Positions 1,735 through 32,418 of a stretch of 36,023 bases of DNA are shown one piece after another. Numbering within the stretch: the stretch's first letter is position 1; every line of letters starts with the position of its first letter. The stretch is taken from NCBI GenBank assembly GCA_021734725.1, contig JAIPIM010000001.1, forward strand, positions 1-36,023, in the 5' to 3' direction. The notes under the pieces are model-generated. The model worked only from the letters and a program-made list of their open reading frames with translations. It did no database searches and was not told the DNA's origin. The position numbers were made by a program, and so were the translations under genes. The DNA is from Minisyncoccota bacterium (GTDB taxonomy: Bacteria; Verrucomicrobiota; Lentisphaeria; Oligosphaerales; MVZH01).

Positions 1735-1893
1735 GCTCCGGACCGTACAGGCGCACGGATGAGTCAGGAGCCCCGTTTTACTTGTGCGGTGGCAACGCCC
1801 CGTAATATTATGTTTTTAAAAACCATCATCCCCTGGGGACTGGTATAAGCTCCAAGTTCTAAGTATGGGATGGCGTTGAAAAAGGGAGTGGAA

Positions 1894-4800
1894 ATGAAGG
1901 CTTTGTATGAACGGGACGTGCGACTTGAGACATGTCTCAATGGCGAGTGGGATTTCAAGAGCGAGGCTGACGATCGGTGGACAAAGGTACGCGTTCCGAG
2001 CGCTTATGCCGGTGTTTTGCAGAGTTGGGGGGCGAAGCAGTGGGACTGTTTCGATTATCCGGAGGACTGGGAAGGAAAGGCCGCGGTGTACAGGCGAACG
2101 TTTACGGTCCCGCCGGAGATGAAGGGGATGGATATTCGGTTTGCCTGCAATGCATGCGCGCATCATTCCACGATTGTGCTCAACGGCAAGCAAGTTGGGG
2201 AATGGCACGATGGATATACGCCGTTTGAGTTTTCCTTGAATGCCGCGGTGGTCGATGGCGAGAACACGCTTGAGGTGCGGGTCAGCGAGCAACCCAACGA
2301 TTTATTCGACGATTACGGCACGCATCGTCGCGGCATTTGGCAGGACACGTTTTTGAGGGCGCGCCCCCGGGTAGCCGTCGGGAACGATCTGTTTATCAAA
2401 ACCTCCGTTGCCGACGGCGAGATCGTGTGTGAGACACCGGTGGAGAATCGCCGTGACGAGACCGCATGTTTCAGGCTTGCCTGTGTTGTGACCGAGTGCG
2501 ACGGCAGGGAAGTCCAGCGATTCGAGGGGGACCGCGAGTATCGCCTGGAGGCTGGGAAAAGCGAGACTTATTCGGTCGGCGATTGCTGGACCGATCCGCA
2601 CCTTTGGTTTCCGCACGATCCCCATCTCTACACCATGCATGTTCTGTTGATTGACGAGGATGGTGAGGTGGTGGATAACAAACGTGTACGGTTTGGATTC
2701 CGCGAGATTTCGTGGGAGGGGCCCCACTTATTCATCAATGGGCGCGAGCTGTTTCTGCGTGGGCACGGTGGACATTACTTCGGTGACATTCAGGGATCCC
2801 GTGCTTACATGGAGACGTGGTTGCGGAAGATGCGGGCGCGCGGTATCAACTTTATGCGGCTCCACGACAGTCCGAAGCACCGCGAACTTTACGAAGTCGC
2901 GGACGAAGTGGGAATACTGCTCGAGTCCGAAGGCGTTTTTCATTTTCGCGTGCCCGAGAAAACCGAGATTTGGCAGGGGCATTTGGAGCGGCTGGTCAAG
3001 GCCCAGCGGAATCATCCCTCCATCATTGTGTGGAGTGTATCCAACGAACTTCGCTGGCGCGGTGGCGGGGAGAAACCGGAGATGATCGAGTGGGTGAAGC
3101 GATTTGACCGGACGCGTCCTGTCTTCGCTTCCGATTTCAGCTTGGAATCACGCCACGGCGATATTTGCGGGCATCATTACGACCCGGTTTCAGGTTTCGA
3201 GGATTGGGAAAAGTTCGGCCCGGACAAACCCATGATCTGGGACGAAATAGGCAGTGTCTGGCAGCACGACCGTCCGCTGGATAACGGGACGTCGGGGTAC
3301 GAGGCGCAGGCCCAGGATTATGCCACGGGTTTGTGGCACGACGGCCACGATCAGATTCTGAAAGACATTCGACTGCATCATGAAGGCAAGGTTTTTCAGG
3401 GAGAACTGCATCGTGTGGCCGGCTTTGTCCCCTGGGATTTGAGCTACGTCTTTTTCCGATGGCAGCCCACCAACAACAACCAGTTGCTTGAGTTGTCGCA
3501 TGACGATCTCGGCGGACCGGGGATCAAGCACAACCATGTGAGGCCCTGCGCGTCCCCCATCAATCCGTGGGATCCCACGCTGCCGGAATTCGAAGCGAAT
3601 CCCGGGTATTACCTGTTCGAGAAATATATGCGGCCGGTACGCTGTTTCGATGACCGTGATGAGCGCACGTTTTTCGCGGACTCAGAAGTGACGTTCACCG
3701 CGCGCATTTTCTACGATGACACGCGGCTTGCGGACGAACTGGCCTGCCGCGTGGAAACACTCGACGGTGAGCTGCTGACCGAAACTACGCAGAGTGTTCG
3801 TTTGGCTCCGGGATGTATCCAGAATGATGTGCCGTGTCAATTTCGGTTTCCGGAGGTTGATTGTGTGACTTCGGTCCGGCTGGTGCGTGAGTTTCGTTAT
3901 CAAGGCGCCAGCGGGTATCGCGAGGTACGCGCCGGGAAAATCTTTCCGCGTGTCAGTTTGCCCGGGATCAGGTGCGGGGTAGTGGGGGACCTTGACGCGG
4001 ATGCACTTGTGTCGGCCGGGATTCCCGTAAACCGAGTGGAGGGAGATATCGATGGTGTCGATATTCTGCTGGTGGACGAGACTGCGTTTGGGGAAAATCG
4101 CGTTCAATCCTATATCGAAGGTGGCGGTAAGGTGCTGTGCATTGCAGAGGCCGATATGTCCGCAGCGCCCAAGAGCCGCATCATCGATCGGTTCACCAGC
4201 AGCGAAGGCGTTTTGGAAACAGATCGTGGATTGGAGTCCGCGGACGGCTGCACGTGGTACGGCTGGGCACCGTCCGGAGACGTGCGTATCCTGCAATGCG
4301 AGCAATGGGGGCTTCAGCAGGACATTGGTCGCCTGTCATTCAGTGAGATCGCGGAACCGGGGGCCTATGCGTACGCATGCTTTGAAAGCCCCTTACTCCA
4401 GCTTGACGAAGGGGCTCTTTGCCTGAAATACGAAAGCGATGTGCGGAATTTGGAAGACTTGGCGCGTGTTGGCACGCGCCTGTTTGACAGGACTATTGGA
4501 ATTCTGCTCCGCGATGCTGACGACCGCTGGTTCCTGTGTTCCGAGGATAGCGGCTTCACGCTTGGCAAGAATGGAACGCCCAGGTATTCTCTGGCGGATT
4601 TGGAATGGCGGGAAGTTACGAACGTTCAAAACGGCAAGATTCAGGGGCGGATTGAGACGGGGACCGGCAGTCAACCGGACTTTTCCTGTGTACGCGGTGC
4701 CGGGATCTATCATTTCAGTGTACCGGAGAAGCCGTTGGACTTCTGGTTCTCCAAGGTAGAATGGACCGGTCGGGCCGCCCCCGGTGCATTGATTCCGTTC

Positions 4801-6531
4801 AACGGGCCCCGTCATCGGTTGCTTGCCGATATTGACCAGCAGGATTTGAGTTTCTGGCGCGGAGGCTCAACGACGAAGACACTGCATGCCCGGGAACAAT
4901 GTAATGTCCGTGTCGTATTAGCCGGCAACAAGGACGGCCACGGCAGTGCGTTGTACGAACAGATGAGTGGTGATGGAATAGCGGTTGTCACGTCGCTGAA
5001 ATTGACGGAACTCGACACCGAGCCCGCGGCGCATGGCATGATCAAGAATAGTCTCTCGTATCTACGCGATTACGAGGCAACGAAGCCTGCTCGGACGGTC
5101 GTGTTCACGGAGCCCGAGTTGCGTGCGCGTCTGGACGAATTGGGGCTGGTACGTCAGGACGCTCTGACCGGTGCGACAACCATCATTATCGACGGCGCTA
5201 ATGCCCGGTCCGCACGTGAGGCCGGTGTCAGCGATCTCGTTCGTGCCGGCGCCAGTCTCTTGGTTTGCAATACCGACGCTGACAGCATGGCGGACATCCG
5301 GGAGTTGACCGGACGAGACATGAGTCTCACGGAGCCGTTTCTGGGGGAGCGCCGTCACTGCGTCAAAGCCGCCGTGAGCTGGACCAAGGCCGATACACCG
5401 CCGGTCATGTGTGAATATTACGAGGGCATCATGACTCATCAGCCGTTTGAGCCCAACTACGATCCTCTTCTTGCGGGGTTGGTCAATCGCGACCTGGACT
5501 GGGATGGCGCGGAGATGTTCCGCGAGGGAATCGAGATACGCGGAATGGACCCGGTGCGCGCGTGCGCTGACTACAGCATACTGGTCAGCAACTGGCGGAT
5601 TGACTGGCGGAAGCCGAGTTGGGGGGGCGAGTACATCCATGCGGCCAAGGATCAAAAGCGCGCCCATTGGTTTGTGAACCGTGATCCGGTGGTGCTGAAG
5701 ATCCGGCATGGTGCCGGCCAGATCGTCTTCTGTCAGCTCGATCTGCTGAACGACAGTGAGCAAGCGCGACGTCTCACCACGCAATTGCTGACCAATATGG
5801 GGTGCGCGATCGGTCGGGATACACGCTTCGCGGCCGCCGCAAAGACTTTCGACCTGAATATTCGGGCCAACCAGATCGAGCGCTTTGAAGAGCACTATCG
5901 GTTTGTCTCTCCGGTGAGTCGCCAATACTACGGCACGCCGGAAGGGATGCGTGAAGCGGCGAAGACTGTGCGCAAACCTGAAGAGAAAACGCCCACGCTG
6001 CTCATCGGCGACGAGCTTACGGTTCGGTATTATCCGTATGCCGTCAATAAGATGTGGGAGGCACACGATGTTCAGGGAATCACCGGCTCGGCGGGTTCTA
6101 CTCGCGAGGGGGTGGGGAACGTGAAACAGCAAGCATCTTCCCGCTTCAACATTATTCAATTCAGCTTTGGATTGGAAGACCTGAAGCTGGGTTCGGACGG
6201 TAAGCCTGAGGTTGGGCTCGATGAGTTCACGGCGAATCTGCAAGAGATTGTGTCGCATCTCAAGACAACCGGCGCGAAGCTGTACTGGACAACCATTATT
6301 CCGATTCCGAAAGGGGACCCTGAGTATCGTGCCGGGGATGAGGTCGCCTACAATGCGGCCGCGCAGGAAATCATGGATGCGAACGGTGTGTACACAAACG
6401 ATCTCTATCGGTTTGTCATGCAGAAGATGCCGGATTTTGTTGAGCGCGACAAACTGGACTTTATGCCCGAGTTGCTGGGTCTAATCGGCAACCAGGTTGC
6501 GGAGGCGCTGATGTTCTTTGGCGCCCAGTAA
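1894..6531 (+). CDS. multidomain GH2-family glycoside hydrolase with an unassigned central region and a C-terminal SGNH/GDSL-like domain
   Basis: This is a 4.6-kb ORF. An AGGGAG Shine-Dalgarno sequence precedes ATG 1894, and there is an in-frame ATG at 1870. GH2 hallmarks are present: the sugar-binding motif IVLNGKQVGEWHDGYTPFEF, INFMRLH, the acid/base motif WSVSNEL and a candidate nucleophile in MIWDEIG. About 750 aa in the middle are unassigned. The last ~180 aa look SGNH-like. There is no signal peptide. Confidence 0.85.
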   Translation: MKALYERDVRLETCLNGEWDFKSEADDRWTKVRVPSAYAGVLQSWGAKQWDCFDYPEDWEGKAAVYRRTFTVPPEMKGMDIRFACNACAHHSTIVLNGKQVGEWHDGYTPFEFSLNAAVVDGENTLEVRVSEQPNDLFDDYGTHRRGIWQDTFLRARPRVAVGNDLFIKTSVADGEIVCETPVENRRDETACFRLACVVTECDGREVQRFEGDREYRLEAGKSETYSVGDCWTDPHLWFPHDPHLYTMHVLLIDEDGEVVDNKRVRFGFREISWEGPHLFINGRELFLRGHGGHYFGDIQGSRAYMETWLRKMRARGINFMRLHDSPKHRELYEVADEVGILLESEGVFHFRVPEKTEIWQGHLERLVKAQRNHPSIIVWSVSNELRWRGGGEKPEMIEWVKRFDRTRPVFASDFSLESRHGDICGHHYDPVSGFEDWEKFGPDKPMIWDEIGSVWQHDRPLDNGTSGYEAQAQDYATGLWHDGHDQILKDIRLHHEGKVFQGELHRVAGFVPWDLSYVFFRWQPTNNNQLLELSHDDLGGPGIKHNHVRPCASPINPWDPTLPEFEANPGYYLFEKYMRPVRCFDDRDERTFFADSEVTFTARIFYDDTRLADELACRVETLDGELLTETTQSVRLAPGCIQNDVPCQFRFPEVDCVTSVRLVREFRYQGASGYREVRAGKIFPRVSLPGIRCGVVGDLDADALVSAGIPVNRVEGDIDGVDILLVDETAFGENRVQSYIEGGGKVLCIAEADMSAAPKSRIIDRFTSSEGVLETDRGLESADGCTWYGWAPSGDVRILQCEQWGLQQDIGRLSFSEIAEPGAYAYACFESPLLQLDEGALCLKYESDVRNLEDLARVGTRLFDRTIGILLRDADDRWFLCSEDSGFTLGKNGTPRYSLADLEWREVTNVQNGKIQGRIETGTGSQPDFSCVRGAGIYHFSVPEKPLDFWFSKVEWTGRAAPGALIPFNGPRHRLLADIDQQDLSFWRGGSTTKTLHAREQCNVRVVLAGNKDGHGSALYEQMSGDGIAVVTSLKLTELDTEPAAHGMIKNSLSYLRDYEATKPARTVVFTEPELRARLDELGLVRQDALTGATTIIIDGANARSAREAGVSDLVRAGASLLVCNTDADSMADIRELTGRDMSLTEPFLGERRHCVKAAVSWTKADTPPVMCEYYEGIMTHQPFEPNYDPLLAGLVNRDLDWDGAEMFREGIEIRGMDPVRACADYSILVSNWRIDWRKPSWGGEYIHAAKDQKRAHWFVNRDPVVLKIRHGAGQIVFCQLDLLNDSEQARRLTTQLLTNMGCAIGRDTRFAAAAKTFDLNIRANQIERFEEHYRFVSPVSRQYYGTPEGMREAAKTVRKPEEKTPTLLIGDELTVRYYPYAVNKMWEAHDVQGITGSAGSTREGVGNVKQQASSRFNIIQFSFGLEDLKLGSDGKPEVGLDEFTANLQEIVSHLKTTGAKLYWTTIIPIPKGDPEYRAGDEVAYNAAAQEIMDANGVYTNDLYRFVMQKMPDFVERDKLDFMPELLGLIGNQVAEALMFFGAQ

Positions 6532-20235: not shown

Positions 20236-20397
20236 TTGCTTTTTCCTTATCATCTGTTTTCTCTTTACGGACTGGTTTTTCGGATTAAGATTGCGGGCGA
20301 CGAGAACGGGGGAAAAAGGTCGCCGTCTCCACTGTATTGTACGTATTCAGCGCCCGCATTCCGTCGACAATACGCTGGCGATGCGGGTTAGTACAAA

Positions 20398-20446
20398 CGG
20401 TCGTCCTCGGCCGTTTCCGACGCCGCTTGCCGGCCGAGGACGACCG
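20398..20446 (-). terminator. 16-bp perfect-stem GC-rich hairpin downstream of the GH95-like gene
   Basis: CGGTCGTCCTCGGCCG (20398-20413) pairs with CGGCCGAGGACGACCG (20431-20446) around a 17-nt loop. The hairpin is 42 nt after the stop at 20488. On the minus strand only a weak TTTGT tract follows it. Confidence 0.45.
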
Positions 20447-20487
20447 GCGGTACTACGCGGCGGTCCTCGGGCGCTAAACGAATTCGG

Positions 20488-22896
20488 CTATTTTTGTACT
20501 GCGCTCTGGATGGTAACACGATCTCCCGGTGTGACATCGATCGTCAAGATGGCTTCTGACATGGTGCGCGGTGGATCGTCATTGACACAATAGGTCGTCG
20601 TATCCCAGGGGATTGCGACCCGGCAGGTTGTTTCGCACAAACTTTCCAGCTCGATCCATTGAACGACGCCGTGCTCCATGCATGCCGAAACACGATACCC
20701 GCCTTTGGCGCGGAAACCTTCGAATGTTCCCGTAAAATCACTGTCGACGGCGGGAAACACCCGGAGGATGCCGTCGTGACTCTGGAGCAGGCACTCCATC
20801 AGCGGCCCGGGGTAGCCGAAGATCCAGTCCATCTGCATGAACTTGCGCGAGGGTCCCCTGCCAAAGAACCCTGTGAACTCCGCGGTTGAATCGCCGCGCA
20901 CGTGCTTGGATGCGGTGCCGGCCAGATCTGTGAATGCATTATCGAGCCCGAGATTGGCTTGTACGAAGCCGATGTATTCGCCTGCAAAACCACCCCTTGC
21001 TCCGTGCCCTGTACGCTCTTTCAAACGGTTCAGGCTGGCCATGGCTGTCTTGCGGTGTGTTTCAGACCCCGTCCATGCCGTGACGTTCGCGGCAGGATAG
21101 ACCGGGCTGAGAGTCAACGGCAAGTGGGCCGTATGGAAGTCGAAATCGCGTTCTTCCAGATCTTTAAACCGTGTCGCCCATTCGCCTTTGATAGAATAGG
21201 GGCGCTCAATGGTCGGGTAATCCGGCAGTTTCTCCAGGATGTCCCGCCATTTTGCCAACGGGGTGTTGTCCGCTTCGAGCACTTCTCCGGCGGCCAGGGC
21301 GCATTTGAGAAAGCCTTTGATCAAGGCCAGATCACAGGTGGAATTTGTGCCGAGAGACTCGGGGCATTTACCCACTTGTTCGGGAGAATAGCTGGGAAAG
21401 ACTCTGAGCCCTCCCTTGCCGTCGGGCAGCAGATAATCCTCGTAGAATCTGGCCGCATTCACAAACATGGGCCAGGCGTGGTTTTTCAGCCAGTCATTGT
21501 CCAGTGTATACTCGTAATGCCACCAGAAATGCAGCATTAACCAGGCGGTGCCCCCGGGCCACATGCTGCAGGTGTAATGGCCGACGAGTTCGTGGCCGTC
21601 CGGTCCGGCACCCATGGGCAACTTCATACCGTCGCTCTTGTAGTATTCCTTTGTGTCCGACCGTGCCTGCTCCGCCATATGTTCATAGAGATCAAAGAAC
21701 GGGGTAGCCTGTTCCAGGTGATCCGCGGCATGGCAACTCCAATAGGTTGCCTGGACGTTGATATCATCATGATAATCGCTGTTCCACGGGGGGCCGTCCT
21801 GATTGCTCCAGACCCCTTGGAGGCCAGCCGCCTGACGGCCTTGCCGCGAAGAACTTCCCAGTGCGTAAAGGCCCAAAAACCAGAGGCGCTCGGCGGCAGG
21901 ATAGTTGATTTCCAGGTAGGCTCGGGACCAGTATTCACGCCACCACTCGCGGTGGTCGCGGCGCAATTGGTCGAAACCGGCATTTCGTGCGTCTTTCAAA
22001 TTCTGTCTGGCTTCCGCCAGCAGCTCGTTTTCATTGCCGTAGCCGCGGACCGTGGTCAGGTAGATTTCGAACGTCTGCGGGCCGCGTGCATCCAAGGCGT
22101 CCAGTTCTCGCTTGGTCCCCTCAAAGTTGGCGACCAGGTTTTCAAAATCGCTGTCGCTCATTCCGCCGTCGCGCAGGCTTGCCATCGACATGGTGTCTGT
22201 GGCCGACGTTTCGACGCGCAGGCCGTCGAACGCCATGGCGGTCAGGCTGATCAGGCCGTCCGGGAACCGCATGATCAGCCAGATCGTATCCGCATCGGCC
22301 CCGGCCGCGGGGGAGGGCAGAAAAACGTTTTCGTTACGACAAAGCGTGACACGGTGTCCATGCGGCTTGCCGTCGTCGCAGCGCAGCTGCATGGCGACAA
22401 CTGGTCGAGTGGCGCATACGATCGTGGTTTCGTGGATACCGCCGGGGCGTTTCCAGTACTTGTCAAACGGGGTGTAATCCACATTTACTTCGGCGGATGC
22501 CATACTCAGGCGTTCTTTGTAGGCCCATGTCTGTGAGCCGCCGGCAATCTCAATGCATGCGGTGGCACAGGGTTGAATAGTGGGGAATACAGGGCCGCTG
22601 TTCGCGGTATTTTCGTCGCCCAGCTCATTAAGTCCATGTTTGTCTCCGTCAGTCACCATCCGCCGAACGTCTTCCAGGCTTTGTGGGGGGAGATTACTTG
22701 TGCCGTTGGGCGTCCGATAGTCCCATACATCACTTTTATTGACAGTCAATGTCCGGTGGGTAGGGGGTCCCCACGCCATAACGCCGATGTCGCCGTTGCC
22801 GAGTATCATGCCCTCAACCCATTCGGAGGACGGTGATGTGCGGACAAAATCATGACGTGCGATTCGTTTCAAACGCTGGTCTGTCGGTGTCTTCAT
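20488..22896 (-). CDS. GH95-like glycoside hydrolase (alpha-L-fucosidase/galactosidase-type six-hairpin enzyme)
   Basis: The protein is 802 aa. The N-terminal segment EWVEGMILGNGDIGVMAWG matches the GH95/GH65N_2-type motif. The central segment GVWSNQDGPPWNSDYHDDINVQATYW matches the GH95 catalytic-region pattern. There is no signal peptide. Confidence 0.7.
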   Translation of the reverse strand: MKTPTDQRLKRIARHDFVRTSPSSEWVEGMILGNGDIGVMAWGPPTHRTLTVNKSDVWDYRTPNGTSNLPPQSLEDVRRMVTDGDKHGLNELGDENTANSGPVFPTIQPCATACIEIAGGSQTWAYKERLSMASAEVNVDYTPFDKYWKRPGGIHETTIVCATRPVVAMQLRCDDGKPHGHRVTLCRNENVFLPSPAAGADADTIWLIMRFPDGLISLTAMAFDGLRVETSATDTMSMASLRDGGMSDSDFENLVANFEGTKRELDALDARGPQTFEIYLTTVRGYGNENELLAEARQNLKDARNAGFDQLRRDHREWWREYWSRAYLEINYPAAERLWFLGLYALGSSSRQGRQAAGLQGVWSNQDGPPWNSDYHDDINVQATYWSCHAADHLEQATPFFDLYEHMAEQARSDTKEYYKSDGMKLPMGAGPDGHELVGHYTCSMWPGGTAWLMLHFWWHYEYTLDNDWLKNHAWPMFVNAARFYEDYLLPDGKGGLRVFPSYSPEQVGKCPESLGTNSTCDLALIKGFLKCALAAGEVLEADNTPLAKWRDILEKLPDYPTIERPYSIKGEWATRFKDLEERDFDFHTAHLPLTLSPVYPAANVTAWTGSETHRKTAMASLNRLKERTGHGARGGFAGEYIGFVQANLGLDNAFTDLAGTASKHVRGDSTAEFTGFFGRGPSRKFMQMDWIFGYPGPLMECLLQSHDGILRVFPAVDSDFTGTFEGFRAKGGYRVSACMEHGVVQWIELESLCETTCRVAIPWDTTTYCVNDDPPRTMSEAILTIDVTPGDRVTIQSAVQK

Positions 22897-22900
22897 AAGT

Positions 22901-22977
22901 GTTCCGGGTTCTGAGTTCTGAGTTCTTGGTTCGTCGTTTGTGAACTAAGAACGAAGAACGACGAACAACGAACGATT
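22901..22977 (-). promoter_or_regulatory. 77-bp dyad array of 11 phased heptads: (GTTC-N3)x5 + GTTTGTG + (AAC-N3-G)x5
   Basis: GTTC occurs at 22901, 22908, 22915, 22922 and 22929. GAAC occurs at 22942, 22949, 22956, 22963 and 22970. The symmetry centre is at 22937. The array ends 4 nt from the GH95-like start codon and begins 26 nt after the regulator's stop codon. Confidence 0.6.
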
Positions 22978-23002
22978 CGCGCGAAGGCTATTTCGCAAGA
23001 GT

Positions 23003-24094
23003 CTATTTACGACTGGAGTTTCGTATAACTAACTGTGGTTTTACGACCACGCGTTCGTACGTGGTTTCTTCACTGAGGAGAAGGCGCAGGGCTTGAGTTC
23101 CCAATTCAGTTTCCTGGATATCGACGCTGGACATACCGCCGGGATGCGATTCAGCCCAGGGGGTATTAAAAAAGCCCACGCAGGGCGTGTTTGAACCCGC
23201 GCCGATCCCGGCCTTTTCAAGTGACTGTAACGTTTTCGTCAGGCGAAAATCGGAGTCGGCGACCATGGCCGTGGGGGCTTCGGACGACAGCAGGAGATCT
23301 TTGATTCCGGAAATATCGCCATAATGCCCCATGCGTTGACTGCACACGTACTCGCGCCGGTCACCGTCTTCATGGATTGCGTCAAGGTAGCCGTTGTACT
23401 GTTGTATATATCCTTTATGGCGGCGTTCGGGCGGCGCCCAGTTCTGATCATTGTGTCGGTGCGTGACAAAAAGGATACGATCATGCCCCTGCTCGATCAG
23501 GTGACGGGTGGCGATATATGTGCCGTACCAGTAATCGGAAATCACACTGGCGGCAAGGATCGGCAGGTCCGACTCCATGCGCTGGACAAACACAAGGCGG
23601 GCGATCTCGTCCTGATATCGGTAGAATGTATCGTAGGGCGTGGTTGCGCCCCCGATCACCACAATACCGTCAGGCTTCTTGTCCAGCAAGCCGCGCAAAT
23701 AGAGTTCGGGAGACGTTGCGAATCCGCCGACAGACGGATCCAGTGGGACGGGAAGGCCCCCGGCATCCTGAATGCCTCGGAATAAAGCGCCGGAAAGACT
23801 TTGATACAAATGCCCCTCGAGCTGGCCGCATACGGCGTATGTGCGGTGGGCGCTCGATTGATGCGCCGACCTGAGAAACGTGCCTTTCCCGGGGATGCGG
23901 ACGATCAGCCGTTCCTCCACCAAGTTCCGCAATGCCTTATTGATTGTTTTGGGGTTGACACTGTATTCTTTGGCCAAATCTAATGAGGACGGCAGCATGT
24001 CTGTATAGGAACCGTTGCGAATCCGGCCTTTGATGTCCCGCGCAATGGTTGACGCTTTGGCTGGCGCAGGCGGTGCGATGGAGGAATTAACCAT
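23003..24094 (-). CDS. hybrid transcriptional regulator: GntR-type winged-HTH N-terminus fused to a LacI/PBP1-type sugar-binding domain
   Basis: The HTH segment is LPSSLDLAKEYSVNPKTINKALRNLVEERLIVRIPGKGTFL. The remaining ~280 aa show periplasmic-binding-protein-like motifs (DGIVVIGG, RILFVTH, PTAMVADSD). Confidence 0.85.
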   Translation of the reverse strand: MVNSSIAPPAPAKASTIARDIKGRIRNGSYTDMLPSSLDLAKEYSVNPKTINKALRNLVEERLIVRIPGKGTFLRSAHQSSAHRTYAVCGQLEGHLYQSLSGALFRGIQDAGGLPVPLDPSVGGFATSPELYLRGLLDKKPDGIVVIGGATTPYDTFYRYQDEIARLVFVQRMESDLPILAASVISDYWYGTYIATRHLIEQGHDRILFVTHRHNDQNWAPPERRHKGYIQQYNGYLDAIHEDGDRREYVCSQRMGHYGDISGIKDLLLSSEAPTAMVADSDFRLTKTLQSLEKAGIGAGSNTPCVGFFNTPWAESHPGGMSSVDIQETELGTQALRLLLSEETTYERVVVKPQLVIRNSSRK

Positions 24095-31212: not shown

Positions 31213-31260
31213 CTTCGCTATGCATGCAGCTCCCCGTCGGGGAGCCCACCCGAAGCGAAG
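31213..31260 (-). other. compound stem-loop between the DUF362 and polyferredoxin genes
   Basis: The outer stem pairs CTTCGCT (31213-31219) with AGCGAAG (31254-31260). It encloses the palindrome TGCATGCA and a perfect hairpin GCTCCCC-GTC-GGGGAGC (31229-31245). Confidence 0.5.
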
Positions 31261-31287
31261 CCCCAAGCCCCAAGAATCCAAAACACC
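31260..31287. repeat. heptamer tandem repeat GCCCCAA GCCCCAA GAATCCA AAACACC
   Basis: Read directly. It is intergenic, 34-61 nt downstream of the DUF362 stop at 31321. Confidence 0.75.
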
Positions 31288-32241: not shown

Positions 32242-32390
32242 TGTAAGAGCCTTTCTTTCTGTCTGTATTCTACGGGCGACCTAGGGTCTACTGATGGGTG
32301 CGGATTAGTTTTGATGCCGATGATCGGAGGTGCCAGGTGTCGGGTTTCAGAAAACACAAGTAAAAATCCTTCACATGGTTGCGAGTTTAA

Positions 32391-32418
32391 CCCCGAACCC
32401 CGAAACCTGAAACCAGAC
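32391..32418. repeat. heptamer tandem repeat CCCCGAA CCCCGAA ACCTGAA ACCAGAC (GAAC/GAAA cores phased at 7 bp)
   Basis: Read directly. It lies 27-54 nt downstream of the polymerase stop at 32445 and about 150 nt upstream of the DUF362 start. Confidence 0.75.

Follow-up and report, generated by a model that had tools for sequence, protein, structure and literature searches.

A heptad dyad between a regulator gene and a GH95 gene

We analysed positions 1 to 36,023 of contig JAIPIM010000001.1 (assembly GCA_021734725.1, recorded as a Minisyncoccota bacterium and placed by GTDB in the Verrucomicrobiota); this whole stretch of DNA is referred to as the window. Its gene content, i.e. sulfatases, GH2 enzymes, prepilin-like proteins and a GH95-family glycoside hydrolase, is consistent with a polysaccharide-degrading bacterium of the Planctomycetota-Verrucomicrobiota group. 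The element studied here is a 77-bp array of phased heptanucleotides in the gap between the gene for a GntR/LacI-type regulator and the gene for the GH95 protein, for which an earlier sequence-only reading had implied a role as operator or attenuator. The features of the locus are given below in the order in which they would be transcribed:

23003..24094, minus strand: upstream gene, a 363-aa regulator with a GntR-type helix-turn-helix (HTH) and a LacI-type sugar-binding domain (Pfam PF00392, PF13377 (Peripla_BP_3), PF00532)
22974..23002, minus strand: spacer from the regulator stop to the array, in which fold prediction places a separate small hairpin (GCGAA...UUCGC stem) about 4 nt past the stop
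22942..22973: regulator-proximal arm, five GAAC cores at a 7-bp step (22942, 22949, 22956, 22963, 22970)
22933..22941: centre or loop of 9 nt (GTC GTTTGT), with one degenerate unit, GTTT, at 22936 and the symmetry centre at 22937
22901..22932: GH95-proximal arm, five GTTC cores at a 7-bp step (22901, 22908, 22915, 22922, 22929), in units GTTCCGG, GTTCTGA, GTTCTGA, GTTCTTG, GTTC
22897..22900, minus strand: 4 nt (ACUU) from the array base to the GH95 ATG, with no Shine-Dalgarno-like sequence
20488..22896, minus strand: downstream gene, an 802-aa GH95-family glycoside hydrolase (Pfam PF22124, PF14498, PF21307)

The coordinates bear out the heptad pattern that the sequence-only reading had described, i.e. 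GTTC five times, a degenerate unit and GAAC five times, centred on 22937. On the gene (minus) strand, 22901..22932 is the 3' arm and reads N3-GAAC, 22933..22941 is predicted to form a 9-nt loop, and the regulator-proximal arm reads GTTCGTT, GTTCGTC, GTTCTTC, GTTCTTA, GTTC. The spacers of this arm are of a different type from those of the other arm (GTTCTGA vs GTTCKTY, read on the other strand). In the mirror register the cores pair at 20 of 20 positions, the spacers at 3 of 12 by Watson-Crick pairing plus one G.T, and the earlier estimate of about 25 pairs out of 36 is about right. A search of the 36-kb window for three phased GTTC units, allowing at most one mismatch, gave seven matches, all overlapping and all inside the 77-bp array, against 0.23 expected from shuffles. 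Tandem Repeats Finder reported period-7 repeats at 22908-22926 and 22942-22975, i.e. in both halves of the array.

The array sequence is reproduced on both sides by two independent short-read contigs from SRR12088349 (Logan L001 and L234) and is therefore not an artefact of one assembly; L234 also carries the GH95 protein in identical form. Both contigs break inside the regulator-proximal arm, and 22955-22978 is supported by the window assembly only. The ends of the two contigs flank this arm, and heptad dyads may systematically break metagenome contigs.

In the minus-strand sense the array begins 25-29 nt past the regulator TAG (23005-23003) and stops 4 nt short of the GH95 ATG (22896-22894); both this placement and the lack of a Shine-Dalgarno sequence had been read correctly from the letters. 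No GGAGG-like sequence lies between the array and the ATG, and no sigma-70-like promoter or terminator-like site was detected in the gap. The dyad accounts for 73 of the 106 nt of this gap, against a family median of 0.53-0.60. The protein collection searched held no homologue of the regulator at E <= 1e-30. Rfam covariance models gave only chance-level matches in the window (E 2-7) and only tRNAs in eight array-bearing loci, and BLAST of the window array and one phage copy against plasmid and phage records gave no match, possibly through low-complexity masking.

Further repeats of the window lie elsewhere. Just past the GH95 stop, at 20389-20487, two 25-nt arms that are 88% complementary enclose a loop of 17 nt in a long plain hairpin, and another inverted repeat, of 30 nt, overlaps it; intergenic gaps of the source genome also contain non-heptad hairpins. 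Three tandem copies of a 34-bp unit (GGTCGCCGGGTGGAACCGCCTCCCACGTTGCGGG), with 97% matches, occupy 1633-1733 between the plus-strand open reading frames (ORFs) 15-1586 and 1870-6531. Finally, the gap between a 4Fe-4S protein gene and a DUF362 gene contains, at 31240-31275, a small hairpin (CTCCCCGTCGGGGAG) and after it a heptad repeated directly in a short run (AGCCCCA AGCCCCA).

Abundance, anatomy and gene context of heptad dyads

We searched for the dyad as GTTC-N3-GTTC-N3-GTTC, a gap of 3-33 nt and GAAC-N3-GAAC-N3-GAAC. One-genome-per-species bacterial contigs contained at least 120 such stretches, compared with about 0.07 expected by our own estimate. The 80 records listed comprised about 35 Acidobacteriota, 9 Planctomycetota, 7 'Deltaproteobacteria', 5 Verrucomicrobiota, 4 Chloroflexota and 4 Bacteroidota, and also among the matches listed were Nitrospirota, Methylomirabilota, a Shewanella isolate, Brevifollis and a candidate-phylum genome. 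Viral contigs contained 98 stretches with the same pattern (GTTC then GAAC, period 7). Control patterns in the same viral collection were far rarer: the everted form (GAAC arm first) occurred twice, one case being merely the junction of two neighbouring copies; period 6 gave 4 stretches and period 8 gave 1, i.e. 25 to 100 times fewer than period 7; and the cores GTCT, GCTT and GTTT gave 5, 3 and 28 stretches, respectively. On the basis of these control counts the unit consensus is GTTY-N-N-R, and period seven and the convergent orientation are strongly preferred.

The arms mostly have 3-5 units, 4+4 being the commonest combination, and in many copies they are unequal in length. Position 7 of the unit is a purine in 610 of 775 units (79%). 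The loop measures 5-33 nt and often has GTT at its start and AAC at its end. Spacer type is lineage-specific: GTTCTCA and GTTCCCA are found in Acidobacteriaceae, GTTCAAG and GTTCAAA in Pyrinomonadaceae, and GTTCTTG in a Thermoanaerobaculia genome. Genomes commonly have multiple copies, even within 8 kb, and loops differ among the copies within one genome. At one locus (L043:2822-3575) four GTTC heptad dyads lie among four tRNA genes; two of them form an exact 93-bp tandem duplication, and 12 nt separate the end of one dyad from a tRNA gene.

An unbiased metagenome sample was used to look at arrays with at least four direct GTTC heptads, of which 147 lay away from contig ends. The sample divided into 115 solitary arrays (often pure repeats), 25 clear dyads, 10 weak dyads and 9 everted within 75 nt, classes that sum to 159, 12 above 147, probably through the inclusion of 12 end-adjacent arrays. 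As solitary arrays predominate, dyads are a subset of a broader heptanucleotide-repeat phenomenon. In the arm of the metagenome dyads that had not been used for ascertainment, the core was kept at 94-97%, and the spacers complemented those of the partner at only 64-74%; the earlier description of conserved cores with free spacers, made from one locus, is therefore true family-wide. A core-free census of period-7 dyads over all fetched loci, a sample that is biased towards GTTC, found the 5' arm to be G+T-rich in 375 of 494 and A+C-rich in 94, a polarity present on both strands.

Dyads lie close to stop codons, with a median distance to the adjacent stop of 7 nt in genomes and 9 nt in viral contigs and a distance to the adjacent start of 22-23 nt, and they take up more than half of the host gap. 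The gene pairs around them were co-directional, convergent and divergent in the ratio 41:11:12, which looks like the ordinary intergenic mix, as judged without a computed background. The 130 flanking genes, unrelated housekeeping genes, gave 180 different Pfam families, none with more than three members, including FtsW, penicillin-binding proteins, CTP synthase, LpxC, MutS, UvrD and the glycine cleavage system. There was no neighbour-gene enrichment among these genes, and their 25 most frequent families included no transposase family and no regulator family, GntR and LacI among them. Dyads also occur inside the pilC|pilB and rplE|rpsN gaps and between phage head genes. The genomic context of solitary direct arrays was too noisy to interpret.

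These contexts bear directly on the possibility that the window array is a dedicated operator, at which the GntR/LacI-type regulator binds the GTTC cores and blocks GH95 until a sugar is present. The array does lie between a regulator and a plausible target and abuts the ATG, its cores are conserved while its spacers are free, and GntR-type HTH proteins commonly recognise GT...AC palindromes. However, the neighbours elsewhere are unrelated, with no GntR or LacI family among the most frequent; copies are found within operons for pili, ribosomal proteins and phage heads; the operators that we know of for regulators of this family are far smaller than a 70-bp array of ten sites; and the gap has no detectable sigma-70-like promoter. 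The interpretation of the sequence-only reading is thus borne out only in part: the role that it implied is not supported, given the recurrence of the same architecture beside unrelated genes and its turnover at orthologous gaps (see below), and we regard a dedicated operator as very improbable.

Inverted arms whose orientation towards the interior is fixed, many copies in each genome and a gain in phages that is confined to one lineage would also be expected of a transposable element. Flanking direct repeats, however, showed no excess over re-paired flanks, i.e. there were no target-site duplications; the loops are not conserved between the copies of one genome, the number of units varies between copies, and no transposase family is among the 25 most frequent neighbour families. 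We give transposition almost no credence. The more specific candidate of the miniature inverted-repeat transposable element was considered and rejected, there being no target-site duplication and the interiors differing within a genome.

Orthologous gaps and the turnover of units

Nine Pyrinomonadaceae genomes (PilB 88-98% identical) were compared at the pilC|pilB and pilB|secretin gaps, which usually hold a heptad hairpin of 25-30 bp that starts 0-6 nt past the stop codon. The unit varies from genome to genome, with both arms changing together: GTTCAAG/CTTGAAC, GTTTCGA/TCGAAAC and GTTTTGA/TCAAAAC are found in the pilC|pilB gap, and GTCAGTG/CACTGAC, GGCAGAA/TTCTGCC and GGCAGGA/TCCTGCC in the pilB|secretin gap. 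The pilC|pilB array is missing in two relatives, and one has a direct ATTCTGA array only; the pilB|secretin position holds an ordinary GC-rich hairpin in one relative. In most relatives a conserved TGTTTT(C/T)GG tract follows the post-pilB hairpin. After the pilB stop of loci L355-L359 the first heptad overlaps or imitates the last codons (CAG TAG TCAGTGG TCAGTG; CAG TAA GCAGAAG GCAGAA), as if the arrays had been seeded from the sequence around the stop codon.

A second comparison was made in the spc operon of Gemmataceae with ribosomal protein L5 93-100% identical. Here the rplE|rpsN gap holds a dyad of the form GTTCGGA GTTCTGA GTTCTGA ... TCAGAAC x5, whose GTTCTGA unit is common to these dyads and the GH95-proximal arm of the window. 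The 94% relative has a variant of the dyad, and the 93% relative has instead a plain hairpin made of another, genome-specific repeat (CCAGCCCGMAGCGCCAGCRAGGGC). The same swap, of a GTTCTGA-type dyad for a plain hairpin, was found in the rplN|rplX gap. In a Gemmataceae genome without heptad dyads, CCAGCCCGMAGCGCCAGCRAGGGC plain hairpins occupy three consecutive gaps of the ribosomal-protein operon (L445:560-660, 1010-1100, 2040-2100), and its relative L442 keeps remnants of the CCAGCCCGMAGCGCCAGCRAGGGC repeat (AGCCCACAGCGCAAGCAAGGG).

From these relatives it can be seen that a gap keeps the hairpin and not its sequence, that heptad dyads can be exchanged for other palindromic repeats, and that they are gained and lost over short evolutionary times. 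The turnover of units while the arms stay complementary favours pairing over a sequence-specific local repressor.

The same gaps bear on whether the dyad is an intrinsic (Rho-independent) terminator, in this case of the regulator transcript. A hairpin downstream of a stop codon and the conserved TGTTTT(C/T)GG tract after the post-pilB hairpins of Pyrinomonadaceae would suit such a terminator. However, no U-tract follows the window hairpin (ACUUAUGAAG) and no terminator was called there, and of 251 flanks only 18 had a T-run of at least 4 after the arm, genomes showing no preference for either orientation; the viral set showed the opposite U-tract bias, possibly from poor gene calls and related contigs. 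Copies also lie within the essential spc operon, where read-through is required, and efficient termination is excluded by the tolerance of dyads within operons that are both essential and highly expressed. Termination of the regulator transcript is highly unlikely to be what the array is for.

A further explanation is that the dyads are a neutral by-product of mutation, i.e. that heptanucleotide slippage and quasi-palindrome template switching produce them in dispensable DNA without any function. Heptanucleotide slippage products are the commonest class of long simple-sequence repeats in bacteria, and 115 of the 147 GTTC-heptad arrays of the metagenome sample were solitary, often as pure repeats, compared with 25 clear and 10 weak dyads. 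Fast unit turnover between close relatives, unequal arms, the lack of target-site duplications and the lack of dyads in relatives of the array-rich phage (see below) would all be expected. The literature on heptanucleotide repeats points the same way: direct repeats of a TAACTGA heptamer are found in Beggiatoaceae, Cyanobacteria and Bacteroidetes (MacGregor 2015, PMC4679880), where long heptanucleotide simple-sequence repeats are cited from Mrazek 2007. Like the dyads, the TAACTGA repeats are 7-nt tandem units, intergenic, often a few nt from a start and patchy among phyla, and a slippage origin has been proposed for them; they differ in being direct arrays, with an inverted partner in one of 170, whereas heptad dyads are defined by the convergent pair. 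Against neutrality stand the persistence of a heptad hairpin at the same two gaps in most of the nine Pyrinomonadaceae despite replacement of its sequence, arm sizes narrowly centred on four units, the tight fit against stop codons, and core and orientation preferences common to many phyla. We therefore consider a purely neutral origin rather improbable.

In phages the dyads can be dense. In one 30-kb phage contig with portal and head genes, nearly all intergenic gaps of the structural operon have a dyad, and relatives of this phage (portal protein <=74% identical) had no heptad dyads. An empty-site comparison at the portal gene was not clean, the closest array-free relative also having a spacer of about 200 nt. 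The polarity of the loop relative to gene direction was mixed in the phage group (32 vs 16). The processing hairpins that RNase III cleaves in phage T7 are long imperfect stem-loops with internal loops and occupy most operon gaps, and array-rich phage contigs show the same hairpin-per-gap pattern; T7 sites differ in having neither tandem units nor a GTTY core. In one phage group (six IMG/VR contigs, L156, L126, L128, L130, L141 and L188; e.g. L126:100-330) GTTC dyads are nested in an outer heptad family, with GAGCANN on the left and NNTGCTC on the right. The outer units, TGCTCTN, resemble the boxA antitermination motif GCTCTT, and some nested copies have a side hairpin (CCCCTTCGGGG) together with a pyrimidine-rich loop that is conserved (AAAACC-YCTCTTTCCCC-AAC).

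Likely nature and significance of the dyads

The closest known counterparts are the repetitive extragenic palindromes (REPs) and bacterial interspersed mosaic elements (BIMEs) of Proteobacteria, of which GTAG/CGTC-tagged REPs are found more widely (PMC3733652). Both these and the heptad dyads are short imperfect palindromes present many times per genome; both are intergenic only, often within operons and near stops, and fall into genome-specific families; both have a conserved tetranucleotide and can be exchanged at a locus for other hairpins. The window array, with arms of 32 nt, is an imperfect intergenic palindrome in the REP/BIME range of 20-40 bp. The differences are that the arms of heptad dyads are tandem 7-nt units with GTTY in every unit and not once at the end, that no GTAG/CGTC tag lies next to the window arms, that no link to a REP-associated tyrosine transposase (RAYT) was seen among the 25 most frequent neighbour families of the 130 genes, and that the dyads are centred on Acidobacteriota, the Planctomycetes-Verrucomicrobia-Chlamydiae (PVC) group, Chloroflexota and Nitrospirota. 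The class behaves like REP/BIME elements, with many copies per genome, a spacer type shared within a lineage and positions in any intergenic gap, hard against stops. It is a variant of the intergenic palindromic repeats and not a categorically new system.

With moderate confidence we read the window array as a copy of this widespread REP-like class that forms an intercistronic stem-loop. The window array belongs to the family: it has at least three phased GTTC/GTTT heptads per arm (5 + 5), convergent arms with a short loop (the 9-nt centre), and the family's cores, period, orientation and intergenic position. The specificity of core, period and orientation, the gene context and the turnover at orthologous gaps are likewise observed. 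It can be proposed that the arms were probably made and resized by heptanucleotide slippage, and that selected pairing, template switching from arm to arm, or the two together probably keep them roughly complementary. Co-transcription of the regulator and GH95 genes is most likely, and the array RNA would fold as a ladder of 4-bp GUUC/GAAC rungs separated by 3x3 internal loops below a tighter 11-bp top. This fold is consistent with the 106-nt gap, for which the sense strand gave -31.4 kcal/mol (z -3.3) and beat all 200 shuffles; with wider flanks the fold signal of the array was modest (z -1.9 sense, -2.6 antisense).

With its base 4 nt upstream of the GH95 AUG, such a stem-loop would serve as an intercistronic hairpin of a generic kind rather than as a ligand-responsive operator. 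It may buffer or protect the 3' end of the regulator message, and it may lower or uncouple translation initiation of GH95 at a start without a Shine-Dalgarno sequence; occlusion of that start by the predicted structure 4 nt upstream is plausible. In Escherichia coli, REP hairpins stabilise upstream mRNA. Liang, Rudd and Deutscher reportedly found in 2015 that a REP within about 15 nt of a stop lowers translation of the upstream gene via ribosome stalling, and the family median of 7 nt from the stop makes a REP-type ribosome-stalling mechanism a candidate worth attention.

Several results weigh against this reading, some of them concerning the window copy itself. It has neither a shared spacer type in both arms nor a near-continuous stem, and its spacer pairing (3 of 12) is in the bottom 6% of 126 copies. 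It ranks 110th of 127 for stability per nucleotide and folds more stably on the antisense strand. Its distances of 29 nt from the stop and 4 nt from the start reverse the family norm, and the 36-kb window has only one clear copy. A degenerate heptad array does occur at 32331-32416, on the minus strand about 29 nt past the stop of a family-B DNA polymerase gene, with plus-strand units CCCGAAC CCCGAAA CCTGAAA CCAGACC and a weak possible partner at 32331-32350; its fold is no better than shuffles (z -0.7).

Other difficulties apply to the family as a whole. Spacer complementarity was 0.60 in register, compared with 0.57-0.61 when the arms were slid by whole units, and permuting the order of the units left the best-register score no lower (z -1.0), i.e. 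heptad order is not mirrored; positional covariation between the arms was absent. In 41 tandem-gene contexts the sense transcript was the more stable one in 20 and the antisense in another 20, and this equality means that there is no G.U signature of selection at the RNA level. In an array-rich phage group, more than 30 copies retain a pyrimidine-pyrimidine mismatch at position 7 of the unit. Neither the approximately 50-fold bias in orientation nor the preference for GTTC, 20- to 30-fold over cores of identical base composition, can be accounted for by pairing energy. In addition, many of the viral matches come from related phages and are not independent, and the gene calls at related loci were crude longest-ORF calls. 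The lack of a register, order or strand signal, the pyrimidine-pyrimidine mismatch and the preferences that are independent of pairing indicate that a further constraint acts on the units. This could be mutational (preferences of slippage or template switching), an avoidance of long perfect palindromes, or a factor that reads the units.

The last of these is an explanation in its own right, which we regard as possible though on the unlikely side: the dyad would be a phased binding array for a conserved nucleic-acid-binding factor that would read a GTTY unit every 7 bp or 7 nt. If it binds duplex DNA, the factor could be a ribbon-helix-helix protein that polymerises like omega or ParG; if it binds the G/U-rich 5' arm of nascent RNA, it could be an oligonucleotide-binding (OB)-fold or cold-shock-domain protein with a 7-nt site; its binding would insulate neighbouring transcription units or control formation of the hairpin. 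Such a factor would account for cores that are better conserved than spacers, even in the non-ascertained arm and with the extreme contrast of the window copy (20/20 vs 3/12), for strict preferences in period, core and orientation beyond pairing energy, for the absence of positional covariation and strand asymmetry, for the systematic mismatch at unit position 7 in phages, and for the G+T-rich 5' arm of 375 of 494 period-7 dyads. It is harder to reconcile with units lacking GTTC (GTCAGTG, GGCAGAA), or a plain hairpin, at orthologous gaps, and with spacer types that differ between lineages; the factor would be needed in Acidobacteriota, Planctomycetota, Verrucomicrobiota, Chloroflexota, Nitrospirota, Bacteroidota and phages, and the neighbour families contain no candidate gene linked to the arrays.

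In a bolder form, which we likewise regard as possible but unlikely, GTTY heptad dyads are the recognition arrays of one broadly conserved factor with a 7-nt or 7-bp site that reads the G/T-rich arm in one direction. If this were true, the arrays would make up a system spanning the bacteria and exploited by phages, one that fixes the boundaries of transcripts or that couples and uncouples adjacent genes; in function it would correspond to REP elements, and its code would be modular and tandem. The copy in the window, with its ten cores kept and its spacers no longer pairing, would then be a site maintained for binding and not for folding.

Protein-bound arrays of this geometry are known. The omega repressor of plasmid pSM19035, a ribbon-helix-helix protein, binds contiguous 7-bp heptads of unit WATCACW that serve as operators and centromere, and ParG of plasmid TP228 binds parH units of a 4-bp box plus a 4-bp spacer; in both arrays one dimer binds per unit, and convergent units are tolerated whereas divergent ones are not. 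The heptad dyads resemble these in having contiguous short units, direct and inverted, and the window array has the 7-bp step. Omega arrays, however, number 1-3 per plasmid, overlap promoters and lie beside the protein's own gene, whereas heptad dyads have a GTTC-N3 unit, occur in many copies at arbitrary gaps and have no linked ribbon-helix-helix gene. The claim of the sequence-only reading that no operator or attenuator with this architecture had been described is too strong in view of the omega heptads.

It is also too strong in view of the Geobacter metallireducens genome, in which Aklujkar et al. (2009, PMC2700814) list 'class 3 putative global regulator binding sites': eight pairs of five tandem heptanucleotides on opposite strands, all intergenic, with the consensus MTYCTGA, taken there as IHF/HU sites without a test. 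By comparison of consensus, MTYCTGA is identical to the window unit GTTCTGA at 6 of 7 positions; the Geobacter pairs differ in being described from one genome only and in having A or C, not G, as the first base. Searches of the literature for the repeat strings returned only unrelated primers, and for the architecture nothing beyond the Geobacter note. Other motifs and processes that were considered are SinR sites (GTTCTYT), IS91 targets (GTTC/CTTG), the tRNA T-loop (GTTCRAN), ECF sigma -35 boxes (GGAAC), integron attC cores (GTTRRRY), IHF sites and, for the G/U-rich 5' arm, an avoidance of Rho loading.

The practical message for this locus is a negative one: the array is not to be treated as an operator for the regulator next to GH95. 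More broadly, intergenic palindromic repeats are well studied in Proteobacteria and, to our knowledge, little studied in Acidobacteriota, Planctomycetota, Verrucomicrobiota and Chloroflexota and in phages, groups that dominate soils and sediments. The class described here appears to be very common in these groups and has a simple searchable signature, and its three specificities, i.e. period 7, the GTTY core and convergent orientation, call for explanation. Heptad dyads also matter for assembly, being points of breakage in short-read contigs. Should they shape mRNA ends or translation in ribosomal-protein and pilus operons, they would matter for models of expression and for annotation, and if a factor reads them, they would represent a new global nucleic-acid-binding system.

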